DNA from: an uncultured Candidatus Bathyarchaeia archaeon
GTDB taxonomy: Archaea; Thermoproteota; Bathyarchaeia; 40CM-2-53-6; DTGE01
Reading direction: 5' to 3'
Length of the DNA: 64,000 nt
NCBI GenBank assembly: GCA_964489085.1
Contig: CAZAXO010000001.1
Span: 1,483 to 65,482, forward strand
In this document: piece after piece, positions 13,424-54,730 of the stretch
Layout of the letters: each line of letters begins with the position of its first letter
Position numbering within the stretch: the stretch's first letter is position 1
Made by a program: the position numbers and the translations under genes
The notes under the pieces: generated by a model
Seen by the model: only the letters and a program-made list of their open reading frames with translations
Database searches by the model: none
Told to the model about the DNA's origin: nothing

Positions 13424-14314
13424 TTACAACAAATTCAATAAATTATCTCTGGCTGTTCTAAGAGAGACAGTAGTAACCTCTAAAATCTCTGATATATCAT
13501 CCTGTCTAAGACCCCAGTCGTACTTATCAGATAATACGTAAATTATACCAGCAGTAGAACACAACTTATTCCTACCACTATAAATACTATCATACATGTT
13601 AGAGAAATTATAACCATCGGATAATATATCATTCACACTACCATTCAACCCACCAAATTTATTATTTAGGCGGTATATATAATGTCTGACGTATCCATGC
13701 AGAGGCACAGCCTTAACCGGTTTCAAATTGTATTCCTTAATCATTCCATAATGTAATTTCATAACAGTTTTCATATTTAGCTTACCACTATCGTTATTCT
13801 CATCCTTCACATAACCATCATCACCAAAAAAACTCAACATATTTCTTACGTTGAAAGGTGTTTCATGTAATCTAAAACAATAAATTAGAATAGCCATAGC
13901 AAACGCCGCATTACTATAACCAGATAATTTTTTATCTATTGTTTTAAGAATAAGATATTCTACATCCTTTTTAATATCACTATTATCCATTTCAATATGT
14001 TTAAAGTATTTCTCACTCAAAATTTTAATAGTAATACCCTTACGCTTATAACCAGGATCCCAATTTGATACCCTTTTAATTCTACTAAATGTACTTTTAT
14101 CCTTTACGTTATTCCTAATTTCAAAAGTAGTCCTTCGAGTGTTAAAAATACCAGATACAACCTCAGTATGCACCTTATTTCTCACATCTTCACTATCATA
14201 TACTCGACTACGCATAGAGACATATCTATCAGTTCTAACAACTAGACCACAGTCAATACAAGTCACATAAATTGAGTTTTTAACTATATTAATATGCCTA
14301 CATTTATCCACCAT
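13424..14314 (-). CDS. tfb: TFIIB-like transcription factor
   Basis: N-terminal Zn ribbon CRHINIV...CIDCGLVV (the CxxCGLV signature). Two cyclin-fold-like segments (SNAAFAMAILIYCFRLHETPF, and GRNKLCSTAGIIYVLS...VSLRTARDNL). Length 296 aa. Confidence 0.65.
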   Translation of the reverse strand: MVDKCRHINIVKNSIYVTCIDCGLVVRTDRYVSMRSRVYDSEDVRNKVHTEVVSGIFNTRRTTFEIRNNVKDKSTFSRIKRVSNWDPGYKRKGITIKILSEKYFKHIEMDNSDIKKDVEYLILKTIDKKLSGYSNAAFAMAILIYCFRLHETPFNVRNMLSFFGDDGYVKDENNDSGKLNMKTVMKLHYGMIKEYNLKPVKAVPLHGYVRHYIYRLNNKFGGLNGSVNDILSDGYNFSNMYDSIYSGRNKLCSTAGIIYVLSDKYDWGLRQDDISEILEVTTVSLRTARDNLLNLL

Positions 14315-14454
14315 ATTATATACCTCCTAATTTCTAAATTTACACTCTGCTTCCTTATAATCATCACATTTGTAATTTTTACCATCGCACTCTATTGATA
14401 GATGTTTTTTATTAAAGCAATATCCTAATTCGTAATACTCACACAATGACATAT

Positions 14455-15054
14455 TTATCCCTCTAAACCATTTAATATTACATTTAATCTATCTCTTTTT
14501 TTACTTAATAATTTAATAACTATACTTTTTAATTTCATAAATAAATTAATATATTCTTTATTATCGAGTCCACCCCTTAAAATATAGGACGGATGGTAAA
14601 CCGGATACACATAATACTCTATCATGTCTTTCCTTTTTACAAATAACTTACCTATACTACTTTTCATACCTCGGTTTTTAATAAAATACGACGTTGCGGT
14701 AGAGCCTAATGTTACTATAATCAAAGGTTTCATTTGACTCATCTCATATAATAAGTGTTTTCTACAACTATTAATTTCGTCCCACGATGGTGTCCTATTA
14801 TTTGGTGGCCTACATTTTACTATATTAGTAACATAGAAATACTCTCTATTTATACCAGCTTTTTTCATAGATTCAGTTAAAAGCATTCCACTTCTACCTA
14901 CAAATGGTTTACCAAGTTTTACTTCAGTACCACCAGGTGCTTCTCCTATAATCATCAAATTATAGTTTACATTTCCAGAACCAGATATAACTTTGTTATC
15001 TCCAGTATATAGACCACATTCCTTATCTACGCAATCTATTAATATTCTATCCAT
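14455..15054 (-). CDS. udg: uracil-DNA glycosylase, family 4 (Fe-S type)
   Basis: Motifs GEAPGGTEVKLGKPFVGRSG, NIVKCRPPNNRTP and HPSYILRGG, plus Cys residues that fit a 4Fe-4S cluster. Confidence 0.8.
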   Translation of the reverse strand: MDRILIDCVDKECGLYTGDNKVISGSGNVNYNLMIIGEAPGGTEVKLGKPFVGRSGMLLTESMKKAGINREYFYVTNIVKCRPPNNRTPSWDEINSCRKHLLYEMSQMKPLIIVTLGSTATSYFIKNRGMKSSIGKLFVKRKDMIEYYVYPVYHPSYILRGGLDNKEYINLFMKLKSIVIKLLSKKRDRLNVILNGLEG

Positions 15055-15055
15055 C

Positions 15056-15370
15056 TTAACTAATCTCTACCATCTCTAGCTCAGTACTATCTATTTCAAC
15101 TACATTTAATTTCTCTATCTCTTTATCATATGAAAACTCTGATACTTTCCTACCCGAATTCATTATAAATTCTTTTAGCTTATCCTTAAGCCAATAAGTT
15201 CTATTATATTTGGTAACTGATATTCTATATTTACTAAATTCTTTAAATCCTATTTTTTCACTAGTTAAATAAGTTTTTATATCACTCTTAAGAGTATCTT
15301 TGATATTATTCAAAATAGAAATTTGTTTACTTATCTCGTGGTATTTCCTTACTTGATCCTCTATTGACAT
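15056..15370 (-). CDS. hypothetical protein
   Basis: 104-aa ORF. Confidence 0.3.
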   Translation of the reverse strand: MSIEDQVRKYHEISKQISILNNIKDTLKSDIKTYLTSEKIGFKEFSKYRISVTKYNRTYWLKDKLKEFIMNSGRKVSEFSYDKEIEKLNVVEIDSTELEMVEIS

Positions 15371-15579
15371 AAAATAATTCCAATTTTTTTATTTACGTTT
15401 TTTATCTCTGTATAAATTAGATTATATAATTTATTTATTTTTTCATTTAACTTATATTTATCGAAGTTTTTCAATAATAAAATTAATTCATCTTTAAAAT
15501 ATTCTTTAGTTATACTTTTTTTATTATTTTCGTGTACTACAGCTTCAGTATATAATTTTTCAAAGTCTATATTCTCCAT
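15361..15579 (-). CDS. hypothetical small protein
   Basis: 72-aa ORF. Confidence 0.3.
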   Translation of the reverse strand: MENIDFEKLYTEAVVHENNKKSITKEYFKDELILLLKNFDKYKLNEKINKLYNLIYTEIKNVNKKIGIILCQ

Positions 15580-15970
15580 CAGTTTTTATCTTACTAAACC
15601 TCCTACTTATAAAAGATATCTCTTCTTTAGAAAATTTGATTTTAGTATCGAAACTAACATTATTAGATCTCATTATTTTTTGATAAATTACCATTAATAC
15701 CAATACTTTGTCTAATACTGATGACTCAATTTGCTTGACAGTACCATTTTTTAAGTCGTATACTCCATAACTAACCCTTTTAAATTTATCTTTATGATTA
15801 TACAACGTTGTATTAATGGTATTCCTTGTAACCTTACCATAGGATGGATCTTTATTTAACTCGTTAACTATCTCTATAAGTTGCATAGATCCTTCTTTTT
15901 TTAATAATTTTTCTATCCTATCAACTAAATACATGTTATTAATAACGTTAAACGATATAATTGACATCAT
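15560..15970 (-). CDS. hypothetical protein
   Basis: 136-aa ORF with a 4-nt overlap with the upstream gene. Confidence 0.35.
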   Translation of the reverse strand: MMSIISFNVINNMYLVDRIEKLLKKEGSMQLIEIVNELNKDPSYGKVTRNTINTTLYNHKDKFKRVSYGVYDLKNGTVKQIESSVLDKVLVLMVIYQKIMRSNNVSFDTKIKFSKEEISFISRRFSKIKTDGEYRL

Positions 15971-16776
15971 AAAACACGTTTCATCCTGTTAAACTCTTTT
16001 AACATTCCCTCCAACTCTTTTTTATATAAACTCTTTCCTGTTTTGACGTATTTATACATTTTACTTAAATACCATTTAAAATTTAACATATCAATCTCAC
16101 TAATTCTATTCACATTACCTCCAGTAAACAATTTAACTAATGATTCACTCTTTGTAGGCCCTACACCACTAATTCTATTTGAAACTATGGTTGGATCCCG
16201 TATATTCGATATATCTCTTATTGTATAATATTTCCTAGCTTTTTTCGATAAATTATATCCCCAACCTTCGGCACAAGATATAGCACCTATCTCTCTATCA
16301 TCGGTAGATGCTATTGGTTTATATAATTTAGTAAAATCTATGGTACCAGTAGAATGTTTAAGTATAGATACAATCATATAGGCAGATTCCTCCTTATTGG
16401 CAGAATGGTAAATACTGACACCATACTTAGTCATTAGTGAACCAAGGGCTCCAAGTTTACTCTCGGTACTCATTTGGGAAAAGACGTTATTTATATCCCC
16501 TTCTATTAAGATGATAACACGACTAAACCCATTTTCATACATCTCTATGACCTGTCTAAATAATCTACCATCGGCAATAGAAGAAACATAATCATCTTTG
16601 CTTTTTCTTTCTATTCCAACATTTCCAACTTTAGAGTCCTCACCCCTAATAATATAATCGCATACAGGGAAATGAGAAGAAAATACTCTACATTTAATAT
16701 TATATTGAGAAATATTGATTCTTAAATACCTAATCATAATAGATGGTTCTCTATTATCCACACCAAGTTCCATCAT
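15967..16776 (-). CDS. ERCC4-type (XPF/Hef/Mus81-like) structure-specific nuclease
   Basis: ERCC4 signature GIERKSKDDYVSSIADGRLFRQ. The start overlaps the helicase stop by 4 nt. Confidence 0.6.
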   Translation of the reverse strand: MMELGVDNREPSIMIRYLRINISQYNIKCRVFSSHFPVCDYIIRGEDSKVGNVGIERKSKDDYVSSIADGRLFRQVIEMYENGFSRVIILIEGDINNVFSQMSTESKLGALGSLMTKYGVSIYHSANKEESAYMIVSILKHSTGTIDFTKLYKPIASTDDREIGAISCAEGWGYNLSKKARKYYTIRDISNIRDPTIVSNRISGVGPTKSESLVKLFTGGNVNRISEIDMLNFKWYLSKMYKYVKTGKSLYKKELEGMLKEFNRMKRVL

Positions 16777-18884
16777 AAAAATACTGCAGCTCCCTTTTTA
16801 ATTTCCATTATACTATCAGTCTTTAAACCTATAATTTCAGATAATTTAGAAACTGATGTAGAAATGAATTTTTCAACCGAGTCAATATTTCTACTTAATA
16901 GTGAACTTAATCGTTTCTCACCAATACCTTTCAATTTAGCTAACTCTATGATACCACCCGTTATGATACCATGTTTAGCCCCTATTAGTAAGTCAGTTAA
17001 TTCCTGCTTGTAATCTCTAAATAGAATCGAAGAAATAGATAAGAAACGTTCAGAAGCACCAAGTACAGTATACTTATCACCCGAACTGAAGGTGAAATTC
17101 TTTTTAACTTTATTTATTTCTTTGTTAAGTTTGCCTATTTCGTTAGCTATTGTATATTGATCATATTTTTCTACATATTCTACTTTCCGTTCTAACTCAT
17201 CTATCCTATCTTGATATTCCGTCGTTTCTTTCATTATTAATTCTTTATGATAAGTAAGAGCAAAAATTTTCATTATATTACCAGAAAAATCTATATACTT
17301 ATCCATTATTTTATACCCAAAATGTCTGGTTATTTCCTGTCTTGGTTTAATAAAATCTATGGCATAATCTATCTTAGTTTGATCGTTATCATAAGCTACC
17401 ACTATGGATGCATATTCTGGAGCACTGGCTATTAAACAGAATAATTCTCCATTGGTCAAATCTTCCTTTTTATACAACACTCTCTCCCAGTGAACAACCG
17501 TTTCCGGTTGTATTGAATACTTTGAAGTCATTCTGCCCTTAAAGGTAGGTACCAATCTATCACCATTAGTATGAACAAATCTGTGTTTCGTTAACCAATT
17601 CAACTCACTTACTAATAAATCTCTAGTTATAGTATTATCCATAAGGAAATTTTCTATTAAAGAAAACTTATCAACATCGGTCACTATCTCAGAAACCACC
17701 CATCCAAGTTCGTATTTCTTAAGGTAGTTCCTCAACTTTGACTCAACCAAAAGTGGTCTTTTCATATGCTCAAGTACTTCCTCCTTTTCAGACTCAGCAC
17801 AAAAAACGAAAGCATATCCCATTTTGGAAAAACCAGGTCGTCCAGCCCGACCCATACTTTGTTCTAAACGGTCTTTTTCAATTAGTTGTCTACCAAGTAA
17901 ATATGAATACTGATACATATCGAACATTACGACTATATCAGCAGGTAAATTTACTCCCATTGCTAATGTGGGAGTAGCAGCAACTATGTTAATTCTACCA
18001 CTTCTGAACATATCTTCAACTTTGTCTTTTTCCTCAACCGACATACCAGCATTATGCCAACCCATTTTATAAGTGTATAATGCTTCATTTAATTTAATAT
18101 TATTATTATGAGTAAGTTCGGATATTACACCCCTAGTTCTGGATCTTGAAGTCGTAAATATGAGAATTTTCTTATCTGGAAATTTAACAATAATTTTACG
18201 GATAATATCGACTCTCGCCTTTATATCCAACCAATAATTATAGTTTTTGCGATATGTCATAACGTATTTTTTCAATGGTACAGGTCGTTCGTCTTTACCA
18301 GCACTTATTAACGACATTTTTAAATCATCGGAAAATTTTACCGGATTATCAATAGTAGCAGATAAACCAACGATTTGACAATCAGGAAATAAAACTCTAG
18401 TCATTATCACATCACATTCCACTATACCACCTCGTGACTCATCACCGTAGTTATGAACCTCATCTATAACTACTAGTCCGAGATTAGAAAAGATTGTACG
18501 TTTATTCACATCATTAAGAATAACATAAAACCTCTCATATGTAAGTATAGCAATATTCCAATCACCGTACTCATCTATTTCCTTCCTGTTATCACCATCA
18601 TCTAAGATAATTCTACTTTTTGGAAAATATTTCTTCAACTCAGCGGTTTGCTCCTTAGTTAAAACTTTCAATGGTGACAATAAAACTGCTCGTTTTCCAA
18701 CACTTAAAGTCTTAGCTATTGCCATAATAGCAATAGGTGTCTTACCATAACCCGTAGGTAAGACAGTAATGAAATTTTTCCGCTCATTAATTAAAGGTAT
18801 AGCCTCCTCTTGACGAGGTCTAAGCATAAACGGAAATGATAACCCATAAACCTTAGCGACACTCATATTTCTTTTGACCTCCAA
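16773..18884 (-). CDS. SF2 DEVH-box helicase (Hef/Hel308-like) with C-terminal HhH
   Basis: Walker A LPTGYGKT, VIDEVHNYGD, motif VI SMGRAGRPG and a C-terminal LAKLKGIGEKR helix-hairpin-helix. Confidence 0.75.
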   Translation of the reverse strand: MEVKRNMSVAKVYGLSFPFMLRPRQEEAIPLINERKNFITVLPTGYGKTPIAIMAIAKTLSVGKRAVLLSPLKVLTKEQTAELKKYFPKSRIILDDGDNRKEIDEYGDWNIAILTYERFYVILNDVNKRTIFSNLGLVVIDEVHNYGDESRGGIVECDVIMTRVLFPDCQIVGLSATIDNPVKFSDDLKMSLISAGKDERPVPLKKYVMTYRKNYNYWLDIKARVDIIRKIIVKFPDKKILIFTTSRSRTRGVISELTHNNNIKLNEALYTYKMGWHNAGMSVEEKDKVEDMFRSGRINIVAATPTLAMGVNLPADIVVMFDMYQYSYLLGRQLIEKDRLEQSMGRAGRPGFSKMGYAFVFCAESEKEEVLEHMKRPLLVESKLRNYLKKYELGWVVSEIVTDVDKFSLIENFLMDNTITRDLLVSELNWLTKHRFVHTNGDRLVPTFKGRMTSKYSIQPETVVHWERVLYKKEDLTNGELFCLIASAPEYASIVVAYDNDQTKIDYAIDFIKPRQEITRHFGYKIMDKYIDFSGNIMKIFALTYHKELIMKETTEYQDRIDELERKVEYVEKYDQYTIANEIGKLNKEINKVKKNFTFSSGDKYTVLGASERFLSISSILFRDYKQELTDLLIGAKHGIITGGIIELAKLKGIGEKRLSSLLSRNIDSVEKFISTSVSKLSEIIGLKTDSIMEIKKGAAVFL

Positions 18885-18886
18885 AA

Positions 18887-18925
18887 CTTTTTTATTTTTA
18901 TATAAATATAGACAATTATCATATT
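18887..18925 (-). promoter_or_regulatory. conserved TATA-rich promoter-like element (copy 2)
   Basis: Matches 12644..12682 in all but 2 of 39 positions. It sits directly upstream of the helicase gene and contains the palindromic ATATTTAAATAT. Confidence 0.45.
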
Positions 18926-18958
18926 TAAATATATGTTATGATTATACATATATTGAAC

Positions 18959-19843
18959 CTATACCAGCGACATTACCTTTCGGTTAGACTCCAATATTTC
19001 CATAATCTTCCCTATTTCATCTATATATTTCAAAATACATCTCTGTTTAGCCTCAGTCATAGTTAAACCAGACTCTCGTATCCAAATACTATCCAAATTA
19101 TCGTCAAATGTACGACCCTTCTTCATTGGTATTCCCCATGACCAAGTATCAACAGAAGTAAATTCAAATCCGTATTTGAGTAAACTCTTCATAAAAGTTA
19201 AATTTCCACCAAATATATGTATCTTTGGATTATTAAACCTCCTGTTTAAATAATTACAAACCTGACGCCGTATTTCTATAAAAAAATCGTACATATCACC
19301 ATCCATGTTGGTAATACCACCACCTCCGATACCCCAATACTCCACCTGTTTTAAATCGAAGTTCTCACCTAACATATCTACAAATAGTAATTTTTCATCG
19401 ACACTATTCCCTTGTATGGGAATAATTAACTCGTAATTCCTATCCATATCGAATTGTTCTATGTAGTTATCTATAGTCTTTCTCATATATGGTAATCTAT
19501 CTTCGTACCTATCCCCTATTTTTTCAATTAAAGATGCTGTATTGTAATCCAAACAAACACCTGAATCTGGATTAATAAAGTTTAAACAATCATTATATTC
19601 AGAAACAGTAAACGGATAATCTGGATAATTCTTTAAAATATTATAACCACCTGAATCAATCATAAGTTTTTTAACGTTCCTAAAAACGTCGGGAAATGTA
19701 TTTACAAAACAACGATTTTTGTTATCATAGGATTTCAAAACACTCTGTAACACACAAAGTTTAGTATAATCAACCCATATATTCCCAGTTCTACGAGTAA
19801 AAAGAAAAGAATTTTCAACTACAAAATAAAAATCTTCAAACAT
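18959..19843 (-). CDS. dpdA: DpdA-like tRNA-guanine-transglycosylase-family protein (7-deazaguanine DNA transglycosylase candidate)
   Basis: MIDSGGY matches the TGT catalytic DSGG(F/Y) motif. At 294 aa it is too short for ArcTGT with PUA domains. It neighbours the preQ0 biosynthesis genes. Confidence 0.5.
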   Translation of the reverse strand: MFEDFYFVVENSFLFTRRTGNIWVDYTKLCVLQSVLKSYDNKNRCFVNTFPDVFRNVKKLMIDSGGYNILKNYPDYPFTVSEYNDCLNFINPDSGVCLDYNTASLIEKIGDRYEDRLPYMRKTIDNYIEQFDMDRNYELIIPIQGNSVDEKLLFVDMLGENFDLKQVEYWGIGGGGITNMDGDMYDFFIEIRRQVCNYLNRRFNNPKIHIFGGNLTFMKSLLKYGFEFTSVDTWSWGIPMKKGRTFDDNLDSIWIRESGLTMTEAKQRCILKYIDEIGKIMEILESNRKVMSLV

Positions 19844-20168: not shown

Positions 20169-21002
20169 TTATACATTTTCCTTTAATTTATGCTTATGTA
20201 GTCTAACAAATACCCTTATATCTGGATTAACCTTTCTCAAATATACTCTTCTGGCTTTCAATAATTCAAGATTAGATATTAAATTAACCCAAAATCTTTT
20301 AGTAAAAATAATAAATATCTTTCTCCATATCCCCTTATATTGTTTCATCAATTCATAATAATACCAATACGGATTTTTATCCCATTTAGGCTCCCAATAC
20401 CACTTAACCCATAAACCATTGTTTATCTCAGCTACCCACCGCCTTAAACAACTTATACACCATCCACACGATCTATGCTTATTATCGTAGCAAGACACCG
20501 TAAAATTTTCTAAATCCTCTACATCTCCACCTTTCTTAATATACTTTTTCAATAATTTAGTCTTTGTATACCTTCTAACTGGAAATTCAATTTTTACCTT
20601 CCTTTTAGTTTGTAATCCAAGAACATCGTCCCAACAATAAGAAATTATATTCTGAGCCATTTTCCTAAATTTATTAGTCTTATCCTTACTAGTTTCACCC
20701 CTGAGAGCACACAAATAAACTATATCCCCGTAAAAACTAGCTATTTCAATAAAGAATAAATTTCGTAAAGGTATATGAGCATTATCCAACTCAAATCCAA
20801 GTATACTACTTGCATCTACAATGATGAGCCTACCTCCGAATCCCCCAAGTTCATCAAACGCATTAATAATTTTTAACTCTTTTTCTTCGTATCTGGAACC
20901 TGTCTTAATGTATAGTAATATATCTGGTTCAAATAGGAAATTACATATAAAACTATCCATTCCACCTGAATACAGTAAGACGGTCTTTTTCTCACTTGAC
21001 AT
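20169..21002 (-). CDS. queC: 7-cyano-7-deazaguanine synthase QueC
   Basis: PP-loop VLLYSGGMDS, YIKTGSRYEEKE, and a C-terminal CGWCISC zinc site. Confidence 0.7.
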   Translation of the reverse strand: MSSEKKTVLLYSGGMDSFICNFLFEPDILLYIKTGSRYEEKELKIINAFDELGGFGGRLIIVDASSILGFELDNAHIPLRNLFFIEIASFYGDIVYLCALRGETSKDKTNKFRKMAQNIISYCWDDVLGLQTKRKVKIEFPVRRYTKTKLLKKYIKKGGDVEDLENFTVSCYDNKHRSCGWCISCLRRWVAEINNGLWVKWYWEPKWDKNPYWYYYELMKQYKGIWRKIFIIFTKRFWVNLISNLELLKARRVYLRKVNPDIRVFVRLHKHKLKENV

Positions 21003-21312: not shown

Positions 21313-21649
21313 GGTCTAAAAATATATGTACATATATTATAAGTAGTATTCTAAGGATAATATCTACAATAATTAATTCATTTATAAAAACAATTACAAA
21401 TAGTAAAATAATAAAGGTAATAGTTGCTAAGAATCTATAACTATGTAAATATAAATGTAACTTACCTTTAAAGCCTAATAATTTATCTTGCGTATTTTTT
21501 TGCCATAAATCACTAACTATATATATGAGCATAATATCAGGCAAAAATGATATAATAACACCAATAAACCCAAAAATAATAAAAGATATAACTACAGTCA
21601 ATATAGTATTAATTATATCTAGCATTATTTTTATTCTTCTATTATTCAC
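21263..21649 (-). CDS. small polytopic membrane protein
   Basis: 128 aa with 3-4 predicted TM helices. Overlaps the GT gene start by 4 nt. Confidence 0.4.
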   Translation of the reverse strand: MNNRRIKIMLDIINTILTVVISFIIFGFIGVIISFLPDIMLIYIVSDLWQKNTQDKLLGFKGKLHLYLHSYRFLATITFIILLFVIVFINELIIVDIILRILLIIYVHIFLDHATHSKKYNRFFEGYM

Positions 21650-33796: not shown

Positions 33797-33829
33797 ACTT
33801 CACTTTACATCCTTTATTATTTTATTGTG

Positions 33830-41617: not shown

Positions 41618-41665
41618 ATGGGTGGTAAGGGATTCGAACCCTTATACATGCCTGTACATTCTACC
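41618..41665 (-). ncRNA. tRNA-like 3-prime minihelix (T-arm plus acceptor, no D/anticodon arms)
   Basis: The minus-strand sequence reads GGGTAGA-ATGTACAGGCATGTAT-AAGGGTTCGAATCCCTT-ACCACCC-A. It has a canonical GGTTCGAATCC T-loop/stem and a 7-nt acceptor strand, and it ends 1 nt before the polB ATG. Confidence 0.35.
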
Positions 41666-41697
41666 CTTAATATAAAAAAAATAAAAATATTATTAGA

Positions 41698-44123: not shown

Positions 44124-44126
44124 CCT

Positions 44127-45353
44127 TTAATCTTCCATTGTTTGTTCGAATATATCGTCTAGGTCATCTAGGTCTGTTAGTTCTTCTATTTCTTCTTCGT
44201 CTAATTCATCCTCGTTATCTTCGTCCTCTTCTTCGTCTTCTATTATTTCTTCTATTTCTTCGTCTAAATCGTTTGATATAGTTACTTCTGCTTTAGCTTT
44301 GGGTTTAGGTTTAGGTTTTTGTTCTGGTACTTCTCTCTTTTGTTTTGTAATCATCATAAACCCTACTCCCTGAAAGACAATGTCACCCCAATCTCCTGTC
44401 CACTTATCTCCTACTTTGGTTTCTACTTGTTGCATTTTGAAAAATAGATACATATTTGTACCTTCTCCAAAATCTAATGGTAGGTTTCTATTCCACCATA
44501 CTTTATACGGTTTAGTTTCGTTTCCATCTGCATCCATGTAACCCATGTTTGGATGTGATACTGCTATACTTGGAGATATTTCGTCTGTTCCAGGATCTAC
44601 AGCCGTGACAAACACTTCAGCCATAAATTCCTCGTCTGTCCCTTTTTTGTGTTCTTGTGTCCAGCTCACTTTTTTATTGAAAATCTTTTTTATATCCTTA
44701 AGTAGTACAGTCTGTTTTGAAAATAGTCTCGATGCTGACTTATTGGATATTCTGTTTAGTAAACTCATATGTTTCTTATTTTCTATGTTTATATTTGTTA
44801 GATTAGTTGCCTCTCTTGCTTCTAGGTATAGGGTTTTATTCTTTTTATCTTCTGCTATTGTCTTAAATTCTGTTTTAACCCATTCACTGTGTATAACTTC
44901 TTTAAATTTATCAGAGTTTGGATTTGCGAACTCGTTTCCTACTGATATACTTACTATCCTTACTGACTTACCGAGTTTTTCTTTAGTTACATTTTTTTCG
45001 AATACACCGATACCACCTAAATTCCATAGATATGAATATTCAGGTAAATCCTCACCTAATTTTTTATTTGGATTTCCTTCCCTGTTTTTAGCCCAGAAGT
45101 ACAGTGGTATCTTATCTACTACTTCACCAATTTCATTTATAACTTCTCTTACGTATCCCTTTTTTACTGCATTCTCTGGATCTTTTTCGTATTCTGAAAG
45201 TGCTTCAGCCCGTTTCGATGCTACCCAGTTGAAGTGACCGGTGTCTTTAAATATTTTCACGTATACGGCCTCTGTACCTATATCTGATAAATGTCTTTTC
45301 TTTTCGGCAAACAACCTTCCGGTTACCGTATCTTCTATTTCTTCGTCACTCAT
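44127..45353 (-). CDS. protein with long acidic C-terminal tail (possible DNA-binding/SSB-like or structural protein)
   Basis: 408 aa ending in EEIIEDEEEDEDNEDELDEEEIEEL. It is the last gene of the polB operon. Confidence 0.35.
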   Translation of the reverse strand: MSDEEIEDTVTGRLFAEKKRHLSDIGTEAVYVKIFKDTGHFNWVASKRAEALSEYEKDPENAVKKGYVREVINEIGEVVDKIPLYFWAKNREGNPNKKLGEDLPEYSYLWNLGGIGVFEKNVTKEKLGKSVRIVSISVGNEFANPNSDKFKEVIHSEWVKTEFKTIAEDKKNKTLYLEAREATNLTNINIENKKHMSLLNRISNKSASRLFSKQTVLLKDIKKIFNKKVSWTQEHKKGTDEEFMAEVFVTAVDPGTDEISPSIAVSHPNMGYMDADGNETKPYKVWWNRNLPLDFGEGTNMYLFFKMQQVETKVGDKWTGDWGDIVFQGVGFMMITKQKREVPEQKPKPKPKAKAEVTISNDLDEEIEEIIEDEEEDEDNEDELDEEEIEELTDLDDLDDIFEQTMED

Positions 45354-45571
45354 ATTTGGATATTCTTTCCTAACTTCTTCCTCAAGCTCTTCTGCTCGTT
45401 CGAATAGGTCTTTTTCGTTTACTGTTTTTTTTTTAGCCCAAACTTTTATTATCTCATATTTTTCGGTTTTTTCTTTTACTATGTTTAACCACCTTTTGTA
45501 TTTTCTTATTATCGGTTTTTAATTAAATTTTTTTATAAATTTTAAAAATTTTTTTTATATTTAAATTTTGA

Positions 45572-45608
45572 ATTATAACTTAATAATCAACTATTATTAA
45601 GTTATAAT
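45572..45608. promoter_or_regulatory. 37-bp palindrome in divergent intergenic region
   Basis: ATTATAACTTAATAAT-caact-ATTATTAAGTTATAAT. The 16-bp arms are perfect inverted repeats, and the palindrome lies at the minus/plus strand-switch point. Confidence 0.5.
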
Positions 45609-45686
45609 AAAAGTTTTAAATTTTATAATTTTTTTATATAATTTATTATTAAATTAACTTTCCAAATTGACATAGGTGGGATACAT

Positions 45687-46499
45687 TTGATTTATGTAGT
45701 TAATTACGACATGGATGAAGAAGATATAAGCAAAATCTCGGATTTTAAGTATAATAATATATTTATAAACTGTCTAGACCATAGTACAAAGGGTATAGAA
45801 AATGTACTCATTAATACATTTGCTGAGCCAAACAGAAATTTCTTTTCAGGTAAAATATGTAGGTATATAATTAGAAACGTATATTTTGCTAATAATAAGT
45901 CTATAGATATAGTTTTCCGAAATGTTGGTAGGATTATATATCTTATTAATATTAGTTATGAACAGGAGAAGTACATATATTCTAAACACAAAAATAAATA
46001 TAGGTATTATAAGTGTTCATTTAAAAGGAGGGATGATTCGTTTACACTTATGGTTAAACGGGTTATGTTTTGGAATGATATGAACAAATTGAGTTTATTG
46101 GAAGGACAAAGTTATGATATAGGTTATTTATTGAAATTAATTAGTTATAACCTACCGGAGTCTGTGTTATCTGAAACGGACTTTCTTAATAATCTTGAGC
46201 TTATAATGGATTTAGGTAAGTATGTTAATATGATAAATAAAGAGAATATATTTGTATCTTTACTATTGAATTTTGTTACACCTTCTTATATAACTAAATT
46301 TAGATATCCTCCTAAACATAGAAAAGGAAAAAAGAAGAAGGAGGAATCTGAGTTAAAAACTAAATATGGTGGCAATATAGAGGATATGGCTCGTGATAAA
46401 ATGATTGAATATTTTAAATATAGAGACTCTGATTTTGGAAATATTAATACATCGAAAAAAGCCAAAAAAAATAACGATAATACAATGAGTTTGATATAA
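45687..46499 (+). CDS. hypothetical protein
   Basis: 270-aa ORF, the first gene of the plus-strand block. Confidence 0.4.
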   Translation: MIYVVNYDMDEEDISKISDFKYNNIFINCLDHSTKGIENVLINTFAEPNRNFFSGKICRYIIRNVYFANNKSIDIVFRNVGRIIYLINISYEQEKYIYSKHKNKYRYYKCSFKRRDDSFTLMVKRVMFWNDMNKLSLLEGQSYDIGYLLKLISYNLPESVLSETDFLNNLELIMDLGKYVNMINKENIFVSLLLNFVTPSYITKFRYPPKHRKGKKKKEESELKTKYGGNIEDMARDKMIEYFKYRDSDFGNINTSKKAKKNNDNTMSLI

Positions 46500-47099
46500 A
46501 TGAATTTTGAGGATATAACTGATATTAAATTTAAGAAGATAGATAAGGATACTATAGAGTTTACTAAAAAGACCTCATTATGGTGTACCTTACCATATGA
46601 TAACCATAGTAAAGGGTGTCCTAACTACGGTAAAAAAAATACATGTCCACCAGATGCTCCGTATTTGGAACATGAAGTAAAGTCATACGAACATATATAT
46701 TTACTTTATTTACGCTTTGATTTTGAGATGTATAGAGTAATAAGGGGCAATGAATGGATTAATAAGGGATTTCCTTATACAGAAAAGCAATTGCGTTGTC
46801 TTTTATATTATCAACCCTCAATAAAGAGGATAATTAAAAATCATATAATTAATAAATTATTTACTCTGGGAAGTATTTATGTTCTTGGATGTGGTTCTGG
46901 GTTGAGGCTTCCTTTTCAAAAGATTGTGTATTCTATGGAAGCTGTTGGTATAAATGTATTTAAAACGTTAAAAAATAATAATATTTATCATGAAATCAAA
47001 CCTGTTAATACTACATTGTTTGTTAATTTAATATGTTCGAGTGATATTGTATTTGAGAGGAAAGAGAAGAAAGAGATAAAAATAATGGAGTTGATATGA
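46500..47099 (+). CDS. hypothetical protein (CPNYGKKNTCPP motif)
   Basis: 199-aa ORF immediately adjacent to its neighbours. Confidence 0.35.
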   Translation: MNFEDITDIKFKKIDKDTIEFTKKTSLWCTLPYDNHSKGCPNYGKKNTCPPDAPYLEHEVKSYEHIYLLYLRFDFEMYRVIRGNEWINKGFPYTEKQLRCLLYYQPSIKRIIKNHIINKLFTLGSIYVLGCGSGLRLPFQKIVYSMEAVGINVFKTLKNNNIYHEIKPVNTTLFVNLICSSDIVFERKEKKEIKIMELI

Positions 47100-48059
47100 T
47101 TGGATGAAGTTAACGTTTTGTTAATGGAAAAATATAGGAGTAGTGATTTTTCTGATGGTGCGTTATTGGGTCAAGATAGGATATTGAGGTCGTGTAGAAA
47201 TTTTGTTAAGAAGGGTGAAATACCACATCTTATATTATCTGGACCTGCCGGTACCGGAAAAACAACTACTGCTTTGGCTTTGGCTTTACGTATTAGTGGA
47301 CCTGCTAATACTAAAATACTTAATGCGAGTGATGAAAATAGTATTAAGGTTATACGAGGACCAGTTAAAGAATTTATTATGGCTGATTCTGATTTGTCGG
47401 ATATATTAAAGACTCTGATATTGGATGAAAGTGATAATATGTCATCTAAGGCTCAACAGGGACTTCGTAGAATGATAGAAGAACATAGTGATTCTTTTAG
47501 GCTTATTATGACGTGTAATTATATAAACCAGATTATAGATCCCATTGTATCTAGGTGTGTAAATTTGGTATATAGACCTATTCCTAAGATTTTAGTTGTT
47601 AACAGATTAAAAAAGGTTGCTAAAGCTGAATCTATTAAAATTACTAAGAAACAACTTAATATAGTTGCTACTGTGTTTAGGGGTGATATGCGTAAGTGTT
47701 ATAATATTTTAGATTCTATTCGTCTTGGTGCTGATTTTGGTGCATTAATAAATGAAATAAGTCCCGTTACTTATTTTAAGTTAATATTATCTAACAATAT
47801 AGTCGGTATTAAGGATTATATTGATAAAAATATATTTAGTAAGTATGATATGAAATATTTGATTGATTTGTGTATAGATTTGATTGTTAGATTAATTAAA
47901 TCTGATAAAGTTAACGATAAAAGTAAATTTAGTTTGTCTAATGCTAAACATTTGGTTGGTCTTTTGACCGAGGCAGATTATAGGTTGTCTATTGGTTCTG
48001 AATATTCTGCTGTAGCCTTCTGGATAGCTGTAAAGTATAATAATTTGGTGTTATTATAA
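47100..48059 (+). CDS. rfc: replication factor C small-subunit-like clamp loader (AAA+)
   Basis: Walker A LSGPAGTGKTTTALALA, Walker B ILDESDNM, and the RFC-specific SRC motif (IDPIVSRC). Confidence 0.75.
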   Translation: MDEVNVLLMEKYRSSDFSDGALLGQDRILRSCRNFVKKGEIPHLILSGPAGTGKTTTALALALRISGPANTKILNASDENSIKVIRGPVKEFIMADSDLSDILKTLILDESDNMSSKAQQGLRRMIEEHSDSFRLIMTCNYINQIIDPIVSRCVNLVYRPIPKILVVNRLKKVAKAESIKITKKQLNIVATVFRGDMRKCYNILDSIRLGADFGALINEISPVTYFKLILSNNIVGIKDYIDKNIFSKYDMKYLIDLCIDLIVRLIKSDKVNDKSKFSLSNAKHLVGLLTEADYRLSIGSEYSAVAFWIAVKYNNLVLL

Positions 48060-48341: not shown

Positions 48342-50216
48342 GTGATCGTTATAGATCTTTGGCAGAAGTTATTACCCATTAGAGAGAAAGCCTACAGTTC
48401 AGATAAAAAAATCATATTGGATAATTACATACAGGGATCTGGTAAATCTCTATCTCAAACCGGTATAATGATAAAGAACAATAAAAATAACTTAGCCTTT
48501 TTTAATGACCACGAACTAATTCACGAAATGTGGAGTTCAATTTACAGTACCAGAGGTATTGGAGGTTGGATTAAGAACTACCCTTTTATCAACCTTATGT
48601 TTGGTAAGACTTACGTACTTAAGGAATACGAACGTAAAACCTACGGCAAGAAATTTAGTTGTTTCTGCAATCAGTACGGTAACGATTTAATCTTTAATTT
48701 GATAAGGATGGGATTTATACCTAGTAATTATTGTAATGATATATGTGTGTATGGTAACGAGTGTTCACATAAAGCTCAGATACGAGAGAACTTCAACATG
48801 GCTAAACTGGATTTTGATAGTCTATGGTTGTTGGTTAAATCCTATATATTTACAGATATAATGGATGGTATATTTGATAAGTTTAAAGATTTGAATATAT
48901 TGATGGATGAAAACTTCTTTAACGTTTTGTTTGACCAGATAGATTTGAGGGCATTTACTATATCATTTTATAAGAAGGCTATTTCAGATGTGTTAAATAT
49001 AAATTCTGAACTTGAGGAAATATGGGTAGATTTTGTACCACTACTTGATAGGATGATAAATAGTTTGGTTGGTGCTAAAAGCATAAAGACAGAAAAGAAG
49101 ATCAAGTTAATAATTAGAGATATATACGAATTTTTAGGTTCTTATTCTGTTTCAGATTTATCGGGTTGGAACGAAATTATGAAGCACACCTTTCTCCAAA
49201 ACAATGGTACTATAACTCCTAAGATAGGAAATATTATGAATAGTTTTATAGATATACTAAATGATATTTCATTATGTGAAACACCTGAGTCTGTCAATAA
49301 TAGAATTTTAGTCGATGACGAAGAACATATATTTACATACATAATAAATAAAAAAAAATTAACTGAAGATCTAATTGAAAAATCCTCCAAATTTATAATT
49401 GCATCATCTATAATGGATGGTAAAATATTCGAAGCATTATTTCCAAATTATTCTGACGATTATACCATACTGCATGGTGGAATACAACCTAAATTTAAAA
49501 AAGTGTATAGATATACGAAGGGTGTGTATCCAAAATATGTATTATATAATTATAAAACGAATCAATATACTAAATCGTTCTGCAATCTACTTAAAATTAC
49601 TGGTGAAATATTACAGAGACATAAAAATGATAAATTGATGTTAGTGAGCTTTAAGGAGTTTATAAGAGTTATCCATAAAGGGTTAAAATCCGTTATACGT
49701 AAATATGGTATAGATTTAGTATATGCATATTGGTACAATATAGAAGGTAAAAACATTTATAAAGATAGAACGGTACAAATACAATTTGGATGTCCAGGAA
49801 GACCAAGTAGATATTCTACTGCGATTTCTACTATTTTAGATTTAGATAAAGACCTGATCGATTATATATCGGTACAAGGTGCACAATTTCAAACATCCGA
49901 GAGACTTAGAAGTATCTTATATCCAAATGTTAAAACAGTTTACCAATTATCGAAGATAATAAATGACAAATATCCTGAATATATAGATTTTAATAATATT
50001 GCTGAGATAAAGCATAAGGGTCTTATTTCCTTTATGAGGAAATACGGGGTTTGTAGTGCTGATGAAATAAGGGTAAAATATTATGAAAGTAGGATTTCTA
50101 AAAAGCAGGTTACCAATGTACTCGATAACTTATTTAGAGAAGAGTTATTAGGTAAGGTTAAGATTAAAAGGGAAGTAGGACCAGGAAGACCAACTTGGTA
50201 TTGGAAGGCTAATTAA
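48342..50216 (+). CDS. large P-loop NTPase (Walker A QGSGKS) of unknown role; packaging ATPase or replication ATPase are candidates
   Basis: 624 aa with YIQGSGKSLSQTG near the N-terminus and Cys clusters (FSCFCNQYG, CNDICVYGNEC). Confidence 0.35.
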   Translation: MIVIDLWQKLLPIREKAYSSDKKIILDNYIQGSGKSLSQTGIMIKNNKNNLAFFNDHELIHEMWSSIYSTRGIGGWIKNYPFINLMFGKTYVLKEYERKTYGKKFSCFCNQYGNDLIFNLIRMGFIPSNYCNDICVYGNECSHKAQIRENFNMAKLDFDSLWLLVKSYIFTDIMDGIFDKFKDLNILMDENFFNVLFDQIDLRAFTISFYKKAISDVLNINSELEEIWVDFVPLLDRMINSLVGAKSIKTEKKIKLIIRDIYEFLGSYSVSDLSGWNEIMKHTFLQNNGTITPKIGNIMNSFIDILNDISLCETPESVNNRILVDDEEHIFTYIINKKKLTEDLIEKSSKFIIASSIMDGKIFEALFPNYSDDYTILHGGIQPKFKKVYRYTKGVYPKYVLYNYKTNQYTKSFCNLLKITGEILQRHKNDKLMLVSFKEFIRVIHKGLKSVIRKYGIDLVYAYWYNIEGKNIYKDRTVQIQFGCPGRPSRYSTAISTILDLDKDLIDYISVQGAQFQTSERLRSILYPNVKTVYQLSKIINDKYPEYIDFNNIAEIKHKGLISFMRKYGVCSADEIRVKYYESRISKKQVTNVLDNLFREELLGKVKIKREVGPGRPTWYWKAN

Positions 50217-50370: not shown

Positions 50371-50859
50371 TTAGACATATGTAATTTGTTCTATTTTCTT
50401 TATTTTCTTTTTATTATATGGAACGTTGTTATCATCGAAGATTTTTATTATTTCGTGTTTATATATTTGTTCCCAGTTACTGTTTACTCCCTTATAATTT
50501 ATTTTTCTTACATATGTGAGTATTTGTTTTAATGCTGGTGTCCTAGGTATTTGGTTTCTATATTTTTTTGTTATATTTAGTAGTTCTTCGATAGTATATT
50601 CTACGTATATTCTCTTTATTACTTTTCGTTCCTTTACTTTCGATAATTCTACCTTTGTTCTTCTTGTCCTTTTTTTCTCTCCAGCCCAGTATAACCAGTA
50701 ACAAAACGTTCCGGTGACTCTTCCTCGTATTACCGCGTCTTTTCCAGTTTCCTCTTTATATCTTATCATATCCGGTGCTAAGATATCAGTCCACGGTTGA
50801 TCTTTCCAAAATTTTACTTCTTTAGTTACTCCTTTATAAGTTATAGTTCTAGTTTCCAT
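50371..50859 (-). CDS. protein of the WRGxxTGTF paralog family
   Basis: Contains VIRGRVTGTFCYWLYW. Third paralog. Confidence 0.4.
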   Translation of the reverse strand: METRTITYKGVTKEVKFWKDQPWTDILAPDMIRYKEETGKDAVIRGRVTGTFCYWLYWAGEKKRTRRTKVELSKVKERKVIKRIYVEYTIEELLNITKKYRNQIPRTPALKQILTYVRKINYKGVNSNWEQIYKHEIIKIFDDNNVPYNKKKIKKIEQITYV

Positions 50860-50928
50860 AATTTATGATAATATATTTATAATTTATAAATAGAGGTAAA
50901 ATATTTAAATTTTTATATAATCTTAAAT

Positions 50929-51387
50929 TTAAAATTTATGGTATTGTATTTTATCTAAGCCAGTTTGTTCTAGGAAGTTTTCATAACTGTGAAATATCAT
51001 ACCAGCCTTTTCTCCTATGTCCTTTGAATAATCCATACATCTACGGAGTACGAGTTTTTTAAATATATCTCTGGCTGGTTTGTTCTTTTGTTTTACCTCC
51101 TCTGGTACGTCCATCCTTAATACCATCATTAATTGTGTTATGAACGGGAATTCCAATGTACATCTTCCTGAAAACTCTATTTTTCCTACATCTGGTAGTA
51201 TCTCTAGTTTGAAGTCGAAGAAGCCGAACGCTTCCTTTGAGTTTAGATATACTAAATTTTTTGTTTGTAGTGTGTAATTATACTCTACATTGGGTTTTGG
51301 ATTATCCATCCAAACATTCACTTTTGGATTGATAAAAACGAAGTTTTTTAATCTAATGAAACTATCTATTTTTTTAAATGTTGGCAT
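50929..51387 (-). CDS. hypothetical protein
   Basis: 152-aa ORF. Confidence 0.35.
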   Translation of the reverse strand: MPTFKKIDSFIRLKNFVFINPKVNVWMDNPKPNVEYNYTLQTKNLVYLNSKEAFGFFDFKLEILPDVGKIEFSGRCTLEFPFITQLMMVLRMDVPEEVKQKNKPARDIFKKLVLRRCMDYSKDIGEKAGMIFHSYENFLEQTGLDKIQYHKF

Positions 51388-51435
51388 AATTCTATGGGTG
51401 GCGAGTTTGTACCTCAGTGTCGTGTGCTCTTTGAT

Positions 51436-52161
51436 CTACCCACTGGAAAAAGTAGAACCACTTTCCATATATGCGATTATATCTCCGTAAAGTAGTTTAT
51501 CTTTGTGATTCTTTATCATGGATAATATTTTTTCTTTATTACTTAGTTGTAAACTACCGTATAATACCATATGAGTTTCATAAAACATTACGATATAACT
51601 AGCTCTCCCTAAATTTTCTATTAGTTCAAAACATCTTTCTATATCTCCCATAAACCTTTTATGAAACTCAAAACTTATTAATTCTATTGGTTGTGATAAC
51701 CCCTCTAAAATATCAGGTTCTGAACCTTCGGCATCAATTTTACAGAATTTAGGTTTACCATATTTATTTATTAGCCAGTCTAGTGTCACTGTTTTTATTC
51801 CTTCTCTATACCAAGTGAAATCTTCTAGTGATTCATCTGGTTTTTTCTTGTATTTGTCTTTTAGTGTGGATAGTTCCGGCTTTTCTTTGCAAGTGTTTAT
51901 CGTCATAATATCGATCTCAGAGTATGCACCCATATCTAAAAGATGTATGTTGTTATTATTTTTGAATCTATGACTTAAATGAATAAAGAGATTGTACAGT
52001 GGTTCCAACGCTATTACAGTTGCACCTAGTTGGAGGAATATGTCTGATTTATCTCCTACGTTAGCACCTATATCGAATACCAAATCTCCCTTTTTTATGT
52101 ATGTAGAGTAAAACTTAGTTTCTATTTTTTTATCTGTTTCATTTTCGGTTTGGTAATCCAT
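51436..52161 (-). CDS. FkbM-family SAM-dependent methyltransferase
   Basis: VFDIGANVGDKSDIFLQLGATVIALEP matches the FkbM signature. Confidence 0.55.
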   Translation of the reverse strand: MDYQTENETDKKIETKFYSTYIKKGDLVFDIGANVGDKSDIFLQLGATVIALEPLYNLFIHLSHRFKNNNNIHLLDMGAYSEIDIMTINTCKEKPELSTLKDKYKKKPDESLEDFTWYREGIKTVTLDWLINKYGKPKFCKIDAEGSEPDILEGLSQPIELISFEFHKRFMGDIERCFELIENLGRASYIVMFYETHMVLYGSLQLSNKEKILSMIKNHKDKLLYGDIIAYMESGSTFSSG

Positions 52162-52207
52162 TTTTTTGACCTCCGTTTATGATAAACAAAAAAAAAATAG
52201 GGTATTA

Positions 52208-52408
52208 TTATAAGTCTCGTGGAAAGATCGTCTTTCTTTTATTACCTTCTGCTCTGTCACAGGCTTTTAATACCAGTTCTTCTATATACTCATCAATTTT
52301 ACCAAATAATTCCTTTGATAACTTGAGATTCTTTCCACTTCCTTTTACTATTTCGTACACTCTACTTTTTACAACAGTGTGTTTTTCTTTTTTGGTTTTT
52401 TCAGACAT
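52208..52408 (-). CDS. histone-fold protein (archaeal-histone-like singlet)
   Basis: 66 aa. RVYEIVKGSGKNLKLSKELFGKIDEYIEELVLKACDRAEGNKRKTIFPRDL aligns with HMf-type histones (IIKDAG...ARHAGRKTIKAEDI). Confidence 0.5.
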   Translation of the reverse strand: MSEKTKKEKHTVVKSRVYEIVKGSGKNLKLSKELFGKIDEYIEELVLKACDRAEGNKRKTIFPRDL

Positions 52409-54729: not shown

Positions 54730-54730
54730 T

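Follow-up and report, generated by a model that had tools for sequence, protein, structure and literature searches.

The DNA analyzed here is a 64-kb stretch (64,000 nt; hereafter, the window) of contig CAZAXO010000001.1, and it represents almost all of an archaeal mobile genetic element (MGE) of approximately 70 kb (the source contig measures 69,955 nt) that has its own archaeal/eukaryote-style DNA-copying genes. The window has a GC content of 29.6% and a coding density of 91%, and 90 of its 106 open reading frames (ORFs) of at least 50 amino acids lie on the minus strand, with plus-strand genes forming one block from 45.7 to 50.2 kb and a second one that starts at 62 kb. For the gene calls, all 106 ORFs were concatenated into pseudo-proteins and compared with Pfam and PHROGs, and key ORFs were also compared with NCBIfam. 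The window and two Logan contigs from SRR14802572 together allowed the reconstruction of 68,653 nt (~68.65 kb) of the source contig. The additional 4.65 kb, which were checked more lightly (precomputed Pfam marks, PHROGs on ten ORFs, and ARAGORN), contained only small ORFans and a TrmB-like regulator. The genes related to DNA replication, some of them as candidates, and one neighbor are as follows (values in parentheses are E values).

28073-29131, minus strand: probable AEP primase with a PriL-like Cys-rich C-terminal domain (motifs and sub-threshold matches)
31649-32599, minus strand: FEN-1 (Pfam XPG_N and XPG_I; TIGR03674 fen_arch, 2.1e-83)
38915-41617, minus strand: family B DNA polymerase, PolB (Pfam DNA_pol_B, 1.5e-33; exonuclease domain, 2.9e-13)
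41698-42744, minus strand: PCNA sliding clamp with an acidic N-terminal extension (AlphaFold2 model and Foldseek)
42741-44123, minus strand: P-loop ATPase with an N-terminal CxxC...CxxC zinc finger (Walker A GKGKVGKT; weak AAA_25 and AAA_24 matches)
44127-45353, minus strand: 408-amino-acid protein with a poly-acidic C-terminal tail of ~60 residues (39-48% identity in relatives)
46500-47099, plus strand: DUF2284 metal-binding protein (Pfam DUF2284, 2e-10)
47100-48059, plus strand: RFC small subunit (NCBIfam PRK00440, 1.2e-58)
48342-50216, plus strand: 624-amino-acid protein (Walker A GSGKS, Cys cluster, DENF, and C-terminal winged-helix-like region)

The exonuclease and polymerase motifs of PolB are all intact, including DIET, DFKSLYP, KYLTNTIYG, and YGDTDS. 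The RFC small subunit matched PRK00440 over residues 6 to 300 with 199 bits, below the 303-bit equivalog cut-off of that model, and it contains a Walker A motif (GPAGTGKT), DESD, and an SRC motif at residue 151; no RFC large subunit was found in the window. FEN-1 reached 280 bits with TIGR03674, below the cut-off of 352, and ends in a PIP-box-like sequence, QTTLFEF. By itself, the ORF at 41698-42744 gave no match to a hidden Markov model (HMM), and the best PDB match of a family profile made from six members was P. furiosus PCNA with an E value of 0.25. An AlphaFold2 model based on a 12-sequence alignment had a predicted local distance difference test (pLDDT) score of 72 and a predicted template modeling (pTM) score of 0.74, and the top 50 Foldseek matches to it were all archaeal or eukaryotic PCNA (probability 1.0, E value of ~1e-11, TM-target of 0.68-0.78, ~0.74). 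As judged from this predicted fold, the ORF encodes a PCNA sliding-clamp protomer.

The ORF at 28073-29131 probably encodes an AEP primase, given its motifs DID72, SGGGSH101, and FRIP149. Among the three family members, Pfam matches were sub-threshold only (DNA_primase_lrg, 0.0075; AEP-TOTE, 0.026; DNA_primase_S, 0.057), and PDB sequences gave no meaningful match to the single sequence or the family profile. Homologues were found at 60% identity in the related contig L088 and at 40% in L111, in which motif II is not kept. The DNA_primase_lrg (PriL) match arises from the C-terminal half of a relative, and this, together with the motifs and four invariant cysteines (C246, C331, C340, and C344), suggests a natural fusion of a PriS-like domain with a PriL-CTD-like, putatively Fe-S-containing domain. 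The zinc-finger P-loop ATPase, with homologues at 47-62% identity in relatives, gave nothing meaningful against PDB sequences in single-sequence or profile searches; we infer that it is a candidate helicase or recombinase. For the 408-amino-acid acidic-tail protein, which had no HMM or PDB match and whose single-sequence AlphaFold2 model reached a pLDDT of 34, we consider it a candidate single-stranded DNA-binding protein (SSB). The 624-amino-acid protein, with no Pfam, PHROG, or PDB match, is possibly a helicase or an initiator, as its motifs would allow.

In addition to these, the window carries a transcription factor and several genes for repair enzymes, nucleases, and helicases.

13424-14314, minus strand: TFB/TFIIB homologue (N-terminal zinc ribbon C5/H7/C19/C22 and two cyclin-like repeats)
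14455-15054, minus strand: family 4 UDG (Pfam UDG, 2.6e-30; GEAPG motif)
15967-16776, minus strand: XPF/Hef-type ERCC4 nuclease (Pfam ERCC4, 3.4e-21; NCBIfam Hef nuclease, 1.4e-19, and archaeal Xpf, 4.5e-15)
16773-18884, minus strand: Hel308/Ski2-type superfamily 2 (SF2) helicase with a C-terminal helix-hairpin-helix (Pfam DEAD, Helicase_C, and HHH_5)
37806-38912, minus strand: PD-(D/E)XK nuclease (Pfam PDDEXK_1, 1.3e-6; phrog_69 exonuclease)

The TFB ORF by itself had a sub-threshold match to Pfam TFIIB (E value of 0.05). An exhaustive phmmer search with it returned 12 relatives, and in the family formed by the window protein and 11 relatives, Pfam TFIIB was matched by 10 of 12 members (best value, 4.5e-29) and the TFIIB zinc ribbon by 6 of 12. 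The family profile matched human TFIIB at 4.8e-24 and P. woesei (Pyrococcus) TFB at 9e-20, with full-length alignment over residues 16 to 285. The UDG scored 155 bits with TIGR00758, above the 125.3-bit cut-off. The helicase at 16773-18884 reached 183-208 bits with Hel308-type models (to 2e-61) versus 61 bits (7e-17) with Hef, and it is coupled to the nuclease through an ATGA overlap, as two ORFs. A Hef fusion in a single polypeptide was therefore rejected, since the ORFs are separate, the helicase is closer to Hel308, and only the nuclease matches Hef/XPF. In all relatives, the PD-(D/E)XK nuclease gene adjoins that of PolB.

A first-pass annotation of this DNA, made by a model from the sequence, had listed several of these genes. 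Its family B polymerase, its RFC with an SRC motif, its FEN-1, and its family 4 UDG are confirmed by the matches and motifs given above. The PCNA-like gene held up through AlphaFold2 and Foldseek and not through HMMs, and the TFIIB-like gene did so at the level of the family profile, the window protein alone staying below the Pfam threshold. The proposed AEP primase agrees with the motifs and cysteines but lacks profile support beyond sub-threshold Pfam matches, and the proposed Hef-like helicase/nuclease was right as to the nuclease but not as to the helicase, which is a separate ORF of the Hel308 type. A histone fold, also proposed, was not recovered: no ORF of at least 50 amino acids matched the Pfam CBFD_NFYB_HMF or histone families, and phmmer searches of six-frame segments with HMfA and HMfB gave E values of at least 1. 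The paralogues at 53363-55033, considered as histones because of the string 'LPIPxNIIE' common to 53363-53650, 53666-54010, and 54731-55033, which has a superficial likeness to an archaeal histone N terminus, gave no convincing alignment.

The expression signals were also evaluated. GGAGG or GAGGT was found at positions -20 to -3 in 16% of ORFs versus 2.3% of random positions, and Shine-Dalgarno (SD)-like 4-mers were found upstream of 40% of ORFs versus a background of 14%. Adjacent genes overlap by 4 nt (ATGA/GTGA) in ten cases, and of the 90 same-strand neighbors, 44 are separated by 5 nt or less. Archaeal TATA-like 8-mers precede 14% of genes versus a background of 4.7%. Taken together, the SD-like sites, the overlaps, the 91% coding density, and the TATA-like motifs indicate a prokaryotic, archaeal expression style. 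Moreover, a longer motif is repeated three times.

12644-12676, minus strand; 18897-18929, minus strand; 62020-62052, plus strand: 33-nt promoter-like motif TTTAAATATGnTAATTGTyTATATTTATATAAA, with two TATA-like boxes, TTTAAATA and TTTATATA

Three exact copies were observed versus zero expected from shuffles, each closely upstream of a gene start, and the motif probably serves these genes in common, as a promoter or operator that co-regulates them. The third copy adjoins a tandem repeat at 61903-62023 (32 nt, 3.8 copies, 74% matches) in the AT-rich divergent intergenic region where gene orientation switches; this repeat region may act as a replication origin or in regulation. AT-rich gaps of some length are also present at 37181-37806 and 45353-45687.

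Between 18959 and 26493, the window has a single cluster in which DpdA, FolE, QueD, QueE, and QueC were all detected.

18959-19843, minus strand: DpdA-like DNA guanine transglycosylase of the TGT fold (phrog_1279 'queuine tRNA-ribosyltransferase', 4.5e-5)
20169-21002, minus strand: QueC-like 7-cyano-7-deazaguanine synthase (Pfam QueC, 2.7e-12; phrog_1550, 1.4e-19)
21646-22620, minus strand: family 2 glycosyltransferase, GT2 (Pfam Glycos_transf_2, 9.6e-12)
22636-23952, minus strand: radical-SAM enzyme of 438 amino acids (Pfam Radical_SAM, 7.8e-13)
24661-26493, minus strand: FolE (GTP cyclohydrolase I), QueE-like radical-SAM enzyme, and QueD (PTPS), for preQ0 synthesis

FolE, the QueE-like enzyme, and QueD matched Pfam at 1.8e-59, 7.1e-8, and 2.7e-24 and PHROGs at 4.8e-55, 1.6e-32, and 5e-15, respectively. 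The DpdA-like protein, which had no Pfam TGT match, contains the motifs DSGG, IQG, GIGG, and HIFG and has a homologue in L111. The gene set is that of a viral 7-deazaguanine system, and modification of the DNA base is predicted from it. In a published survey, 180 phages and archaeal viruses had this pathway, which shields phage DNA from restriction (PMC6884629). The DpdA systems of Hutinet et al. 2019 (PMC6884629) have the same gene set, here also present as a single cluster; in contrast to them, DpdA is highly diverged here (detected by the PHROG match at 4.5e-5 only), and the GT2 and extra radical-SAM genes are inserted between the QueC-like gene and FolE/QueE/QueD. These two embedded enzymes may decorate the deazaguanine base further, e.g., by glycosylation.

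All contigs with PolB homologues of 48-56% identity were short (28 kb or less) and came from sediment metagenomes and a few Logan assemblies, the sources being Loki's Castle sediment (LAZR01/LCGC14), Ga0073582/3, Ga0114919/23, Ga0209976, and SDBV01. The relatives share a syntenic core formed by the acidic-tail protein, the zinc-finger P-loop ATPase, PCNA, PolB, and the PD-(D/E)XK nuclease, to which L088 adds the primase; the more distant L111 has DpdA, primase, FEN-1, nuclease, PolB, and DUF2284 in common with the window. In the GenBank phage and archaeal-virus collection, all PolB matches were below 60% identity, and the best listed were haloarchaeal tailed viruses at 23-25% (HGTV-1 and relatives). 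No PolB relative was found in 185,579 GTDB species genomes, where a primase-like sequence of 24% identity on a 9-kb 'Patescibacteria' contig was the one match. All ten proteins checked fell into singleton clusters without names. Overall, this lineage was not found in virus databases or the searchable literature, and it adds a new lineage to an established type, namely, large, archaeal, probably Asgard, replisome-encoding virus-like elements.

To place the host, the ranking of FEN-1 matches was considered. Past the element's own relatives, it consists of an uninterrupted block in which all source-named sequences are from Promethearchaeota, Promethearchaeati, or Lokiarchaeota, at 37-41% identity, followed by other archaeal FEN-1 sequences (Micrarchaeia, Thermococcus, and Desulfurococcaceae) at 36-39%. 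The best FEN-1 of this Asgard block (P0106), which lies on a 201-kb cellular contig, shares 91% identity with a FEN-1 labeled Promethearchaeota. The GC content of that contig is 30.1% versus 29.6% in the window, and their tetranucleotide correlation is 0.60, compared with 0.58-0.86 for the element's own relatives and 0.06-0.23 for unrelated contigs of 34% GC. In addition, Loki's Castle sediment (LAZR01) is a source of relatives, as are Ga0114923 and Ga0209976, metagenomes that have also yielded Asgard-targeted MGEs.

One further group of genes bears on the nature of the element.

197-4465, minus strand: four membrane-anchored or secreted beta-rich proteins, namely, a CBM/LamG-like protein, a PKD protein, and two ORFans (Sialidase-like_CBM, 2.3e-6; PKD_4, 2.6e-5)

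The proteins have hydrophobic N- and C-terminal segments, and the cluster is a candidate surface or adhesion module.

The assignment to an MGE rather than a cellular genome is supported by several lines of evidence: ARAGORN found zero tRNAs and Rfam gave nothing at gathering thresholds in the window, no translation or core-metabolism genes were detected, coding is dense and mostly on one strand, and the gene content includes many ORFans and paralogue arrays, with singleton clusters. If the DNA came from the reduced cellular genome of an archaeon, such as an episymbiont, the many archaeal-type informational genes would be accounted for, but we regard this as very improbable, since the ~68.65 kb has no rRNA, tRNA, ribosomal protein, aminoacyl-tRNA synthetase, RNA polymerase, or core-metabolism gene, most ORFs are ORFans in singleton clusters, and the GTDB species genomes hold no relative apart from the 24%-identity match. 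An archaeal host, rather than a eukaryotic or bacterial one, is supported by TFB, PCNA, the archaeal-type RFC, FEN-1, and family 4 UDG, Hel308, XPF, the SD sites and overlaps, the TATA-like 8-mers, the thrice-repeated promoter-like motif, and a DpdA/preQ0 cluster of the type found in prokaryotic viruses. Giant viruses, too, have PolB, PCNA, RFC, FEN-1, and TFIIB-like genes, and the TFB zinc ribbon has a weak A2L/VLTF3 match in Pfam (E value of 0.02). Nevertheless, a eukaryotic large DNA virus, similar to nucleocytoplasmic large DNA viruses (NCLDVs) or mirusviruses, is extremely unlikely: the genes are arranged in ATGA-coupled operons with SD sites, the family 4 UDG and the DpdA/preQ0 cluster are prokaryotic features, the nearest neighbors of FEN-1 are archaeal, and beyond that zinc ribbon no match to the NCLDV hallmarks A32, D5, VLTF3, or major capsid protein (MCP) was found with Pfam and PHROGs in the ~68.65 kb. 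The first-pass annotation had noted ribosome-binding sites and ATGA-type overlaps and the lack of translation, synthetase, and metabolic genes in the 64 kb, and it had preferred a virus or MGE of an archaeal host over a eukaryotic giant virus. All of this is borne out, and neither the cellular genes nor the NCLDV hallmarks that it proposed to look for appeared, the former in ~68.65 kb of the 69,955 nt. Among archaea, the evidence is suggestive of an Asgard/Lokiarchaeia-type host. A virus or MGE of a non-Asgard, low-GC sediment archaeon, e.g., of the DPANN (Woesearchaeales or Pacearchaeales), is possible but rather unlikely. It is favored by the low identity of FEN-1 to Asgard sequences (37-41%), with Micrarchaeia, Thermococcus, and Desulfurococcaceae close behind, by the weakness of the compositional evidence, and by one PolB match named Woesearchaeota (25% identity); on the other side, every source-named FEN-1 directly after the element's own relatives is from an Asgard lineage, the GC content is close and the correlation of 0.60 equals that of some true relatives, and the relatives co-occur with Asgard-rich sediments.

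We lean, at slightly better than even confidence, toward a virus of an Asgard-type archaeon. The window would then hold the greater part of the genome of a hitherto undescribed double-stranded DNA (dsDNA) virus from marine sediment with a low-GC archaeal host, most likely a Lokiarchaeia-type Asgard, a description that we hold to be marginally more probable than its opposite. A virus rather than a plasmid is favored by the complete DpdA and preQ0 cluster, the multi-component replisome, which by analogy recalls large lytic viruses, and the surface module, and by the fact that integrase, partition, conjugation, and toxin-antitoxin or other addiction families were absent among the window's Pfam matches. 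Several results weigh against this interpretation. At the HMM level, searches of the 106 ORFs and the extension with Pfam and PHROGs returned no gene for an MCP, portal, terminase, packaging ATPase, protease, or tail protein; searches of IMG/VR with PolB, ATPase, primase, and TFB alignments gave no relative and only generic PolBs at ~25%; and INPHARED tblastn searches with TFB, PCNA, and the ATPase gave no match. The relative L084 carries a ParB_N gene, which is more typical of plasmids, and the 68.65-kb reconstruction has no terminal direct or inverted repeats, so that it may be incomplete. As for the host, the Asgard assignment draws on the similarity ranking of one gene and on base composition, not on CRISPR spacers, and two low-GC IMG/VR control contigs reach tetranucleotide correlations of 0.42-0.50, indicating that this signal is not very specific. 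The absence of recognizable capsid genes, the absence from IMG/VR, and the ParB_N gene would also fit a capsid-less archaeal MGE, that is, a large plasmid or 'enigmatic MGE' with its own replisome that spreads by vesicles, cell contact, or other means. Circular elements with PCNA and TFB and no identifiable MCP, 58.8 and 84.5 kb in size and targeted by Asgard CRISPR spacers, provide a precedent (10.1101/2021.07.29.453957), and such an element is quite conceivable here, though short of probable. Self-directed 7-deazaguanine hypermodification with DpdA is characteristic of viruses (PMC6884629), plasmid-type maintenance and transfer genes are lacking among the Pfam matches, an adhesin-like secreted module is present, and unrecognized capsid genes are common among archaeal viruses, all of which speak for a virus. 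Failure to recognize capsid genes is, in fact, normal in this host group, as seen with Fenrir and Skoll and with the elements of Medvedeva et al. The caveat of the first-pass annotation that no confident capsid or terminase call could be made stands even with HMM libraries, and because of it the choice between virus and other MGE is not narrowed with certainty. The same searches, at HMM sensitivity, gave no support for placement among known virus groups: no ORF had a Pfam or PHROG match to the HK97-fold MCP, portal, or large terminase of Caudoviricetes, and of the double-jelly-roll MCP, FtsK/A32 ATPase, D5, and VLTF3 of Varidnaviria/Nucleocytoviricota, there was only the A2L zinc-ribbon trace.

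The element was compared with described systems. Medvedeva et al. reported Asgard MGEs of 45-85 kb with PCNA and TFB and left them as 'novel viruses or plasmids' (10.1101/2021.07.29.453957). These enigmatic MGEs (10H_0 and the 7H_42/Ga0114923_10000127/Ga0209976_10000148 group) resemble the present element in size, in their origin from deep marine sediment, in having PCNA, TFB, replication and repair genes, nucleases, and zinc-finger proteins, and in the lack of an identifiable MCP; relatives of the present element come from the same metagenomes, Ga0114923 and Ga0209976. By description, on which this comparison is based, they differ in having Topo mini-A, a primase-SF3 helicase fusion, and Rad51-like or Cdc6/Orc1 proteins, and neither PolB, RFC, FEN-1, nor a deazaguanine cluster is mentioned for them, whereas Topo mini-A, SF3 helicase, and Orc1 were not detected in the present element. 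Their link to Asgard hosts was made through CRISPR spacers, whereas here it was made through the FEN-1 ranking and composition. The Asgard viruses of Rambo et al. carry PolB, RFC-like, or PCNA genes, and Fenrir and Skoll are without an identified MCP (10.1101/2021.07.29.454249). Fenrir, Skoll, and Nidhogg are large dsDNA viruses (to 117.5 kb) tied to Lokiarchaeota/Helarchaeota that have, between them, PolB and RFC-like ATPases or PCNA; they show Caudovirales hallmarks (portal and terminase), none of which was found here. Magroviruses (Aoguangviridae) are described as having most DNA replication machinery components (PMC10768690), and, by that description, they and the HGTV-1-like haloarchaeal tailed viruses are archaeal viruses with near-complete archaeal-type replisomes, as here. 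However, they are Caudoviricetes with HK97 capsid, portal, and terminase, none of which is detectable here, and PolB identity is only 23-25%.

Elements resembling part of a tRNA were also observed.

41618-41666, minus strand: tRNA-like element with a perfect T-arm, GGTTCGAATCC, followed by an acceptor-like ACCACCC and then A, abutting the PolB start codon

A degenerate second copy lies at 51390-51440 (minus strand), before the start of the ORF at 50929-51387, and analogous intergenic elements are present in three relatives (L087 2277-2342, L090 3278-3326, and L088 1188-1243). For L087, folding (z of -3.1) yields an acceptor stem and a T-arm along with a mini-hairpin. Across four elements, compensatory changes keep the pairing in 3 of 5 pairs of the T-arm GGTTCRANTCC. 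Neither ARAGORN nor Rfam called these elements as tRNA, which speaks against genuine tRNAs. An attP/att site is less likely, since no integrase was found and the second copy also precedes a start codon; for the same reasons, a role in expression or processing seems more likely. These minihelices might act as signals for processing by RNase P/Z, or they might instead be degenerated tRNA genes or remnants of att sites; in the first case, RNase P/Z cleavage could release leaderless mRNAs.

Other genes complete the window.

51436-52161, minus strand: FkbM-family methyltransferase (Pfam Methyltransf_21, 1e-7; phrog_8156, 6.4e-12)

A GHKL-type ATPase of 516 amino acids (6698-8248, minus strand; HATPase_c_3, 4.7e-14) and an Mrr-like restriction endonuclease (60137-61129, minus strand; Mrr_cat, 6.6e-6) are possible counter-defense or inter-element competition genes. 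Small proteins of 60-140 amino acids form paralogue arrays (seven families by BLASTP) without a match in any library, at 53363-57710 (minus strand), 26857-27910 with 50371-50859, 33575-34141 with 58047-59122, and 62064-62336 with 62471-62623 (plus strand). Both the arrays and the surface-protein genes had been pointed out in the initial reading, and both were seen again, the latter with the Pfam matches at 197-4465. The pentapeptide-repeat protein at 10022-10942 (minus strand) has a paralogue of its C-terminal domain at ~68.3-68.5 kb of the source contig (L002 1-200), and the Logan assembly breaks at both copies (window ~10304-10395 and ~68493).

The gene identities given here are tool results, and the roles in replication, transcription, and modification proposed below follow from the established functions of the families. 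In a virus of an Asgard-type archaeon, as we favor, the TFB homologue would direct the host RNA polymerase and TBP to the TATA-box promoters of the element, and the genes, in long one-directional operons, would be translated via SD sites or coupled ATGA restarts. Replication would be largely self-sufficient and of the archaeal/eukaryotic type: the AEP-type primase would make primers, and PolB would elongate them while tethered by the element's PCNA, which the RFC small-subunit homologue would load. FEN-1, which carries a PIP box, would then remove the primers, with the host supplying ligase and perhaps the RFC large subunit. The acidic-tail protein and the zinc-finger P-loop ATPase, adjoining PCNA/PolB, would be the likely SSB and helicase/recombinase, and the family 4 UDG, the Hel308-type helicase, the XPF nuclease, and the PD-(D/E)XK nuclease may serve in repair and fork processing. 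FolE, QueD, QueE, and QueC would make preQ0, which DpdA would swap for guanine in the element's DNA; the GT2 and radical-SAM enzymes may decorate the base further, and the modification would guard against host restriction. The PKD/CBM proteins, which are membrane-anchored and encoded at one end, may provide surface or adhesion functions for the virion or the infected cell. Since the particle-forming genes are unrecognizable, the virion would be of an unknown or highly diverged type.

More tentatively, and doubtfully, the element could represent a new lineage of family rank among Asgard (Lokiarchaeia) viruses, with this as its first substantial genome (~70 kb). Such a lineage would combine a near-autonomous replisome (PolB, PCNA, RFC, and FEN-1 as well as a novel SSB, a novel helicase, and a primase of the fused PriS-PriL-like type), a TFB of its own, hypermodified 7-deazaguanine (possibly glycosylated) DNA, virion proteins unrelated to known capsid folds, and tRNA-like minihelices before start codons. 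In length, the contig far exceeds all other representatives of this sediment lineage, which are fragments of 28 kb or less. It may serve as a test bed for new archaeal virion proteins, and it provides an Asgard-associated candidate for 7-deazaguanine DNA modification. If the element is capsid-less, it would extend the class of large replisome-encoding 'enigmatic' archaeal MGEs. The replication genes of such elements bear on the debates over the origin of the eukaryotic and giant-virus replication machinery, and the contig offers a PolB-PCNA-RFC-FEN-1-TFB set for phylogenies.

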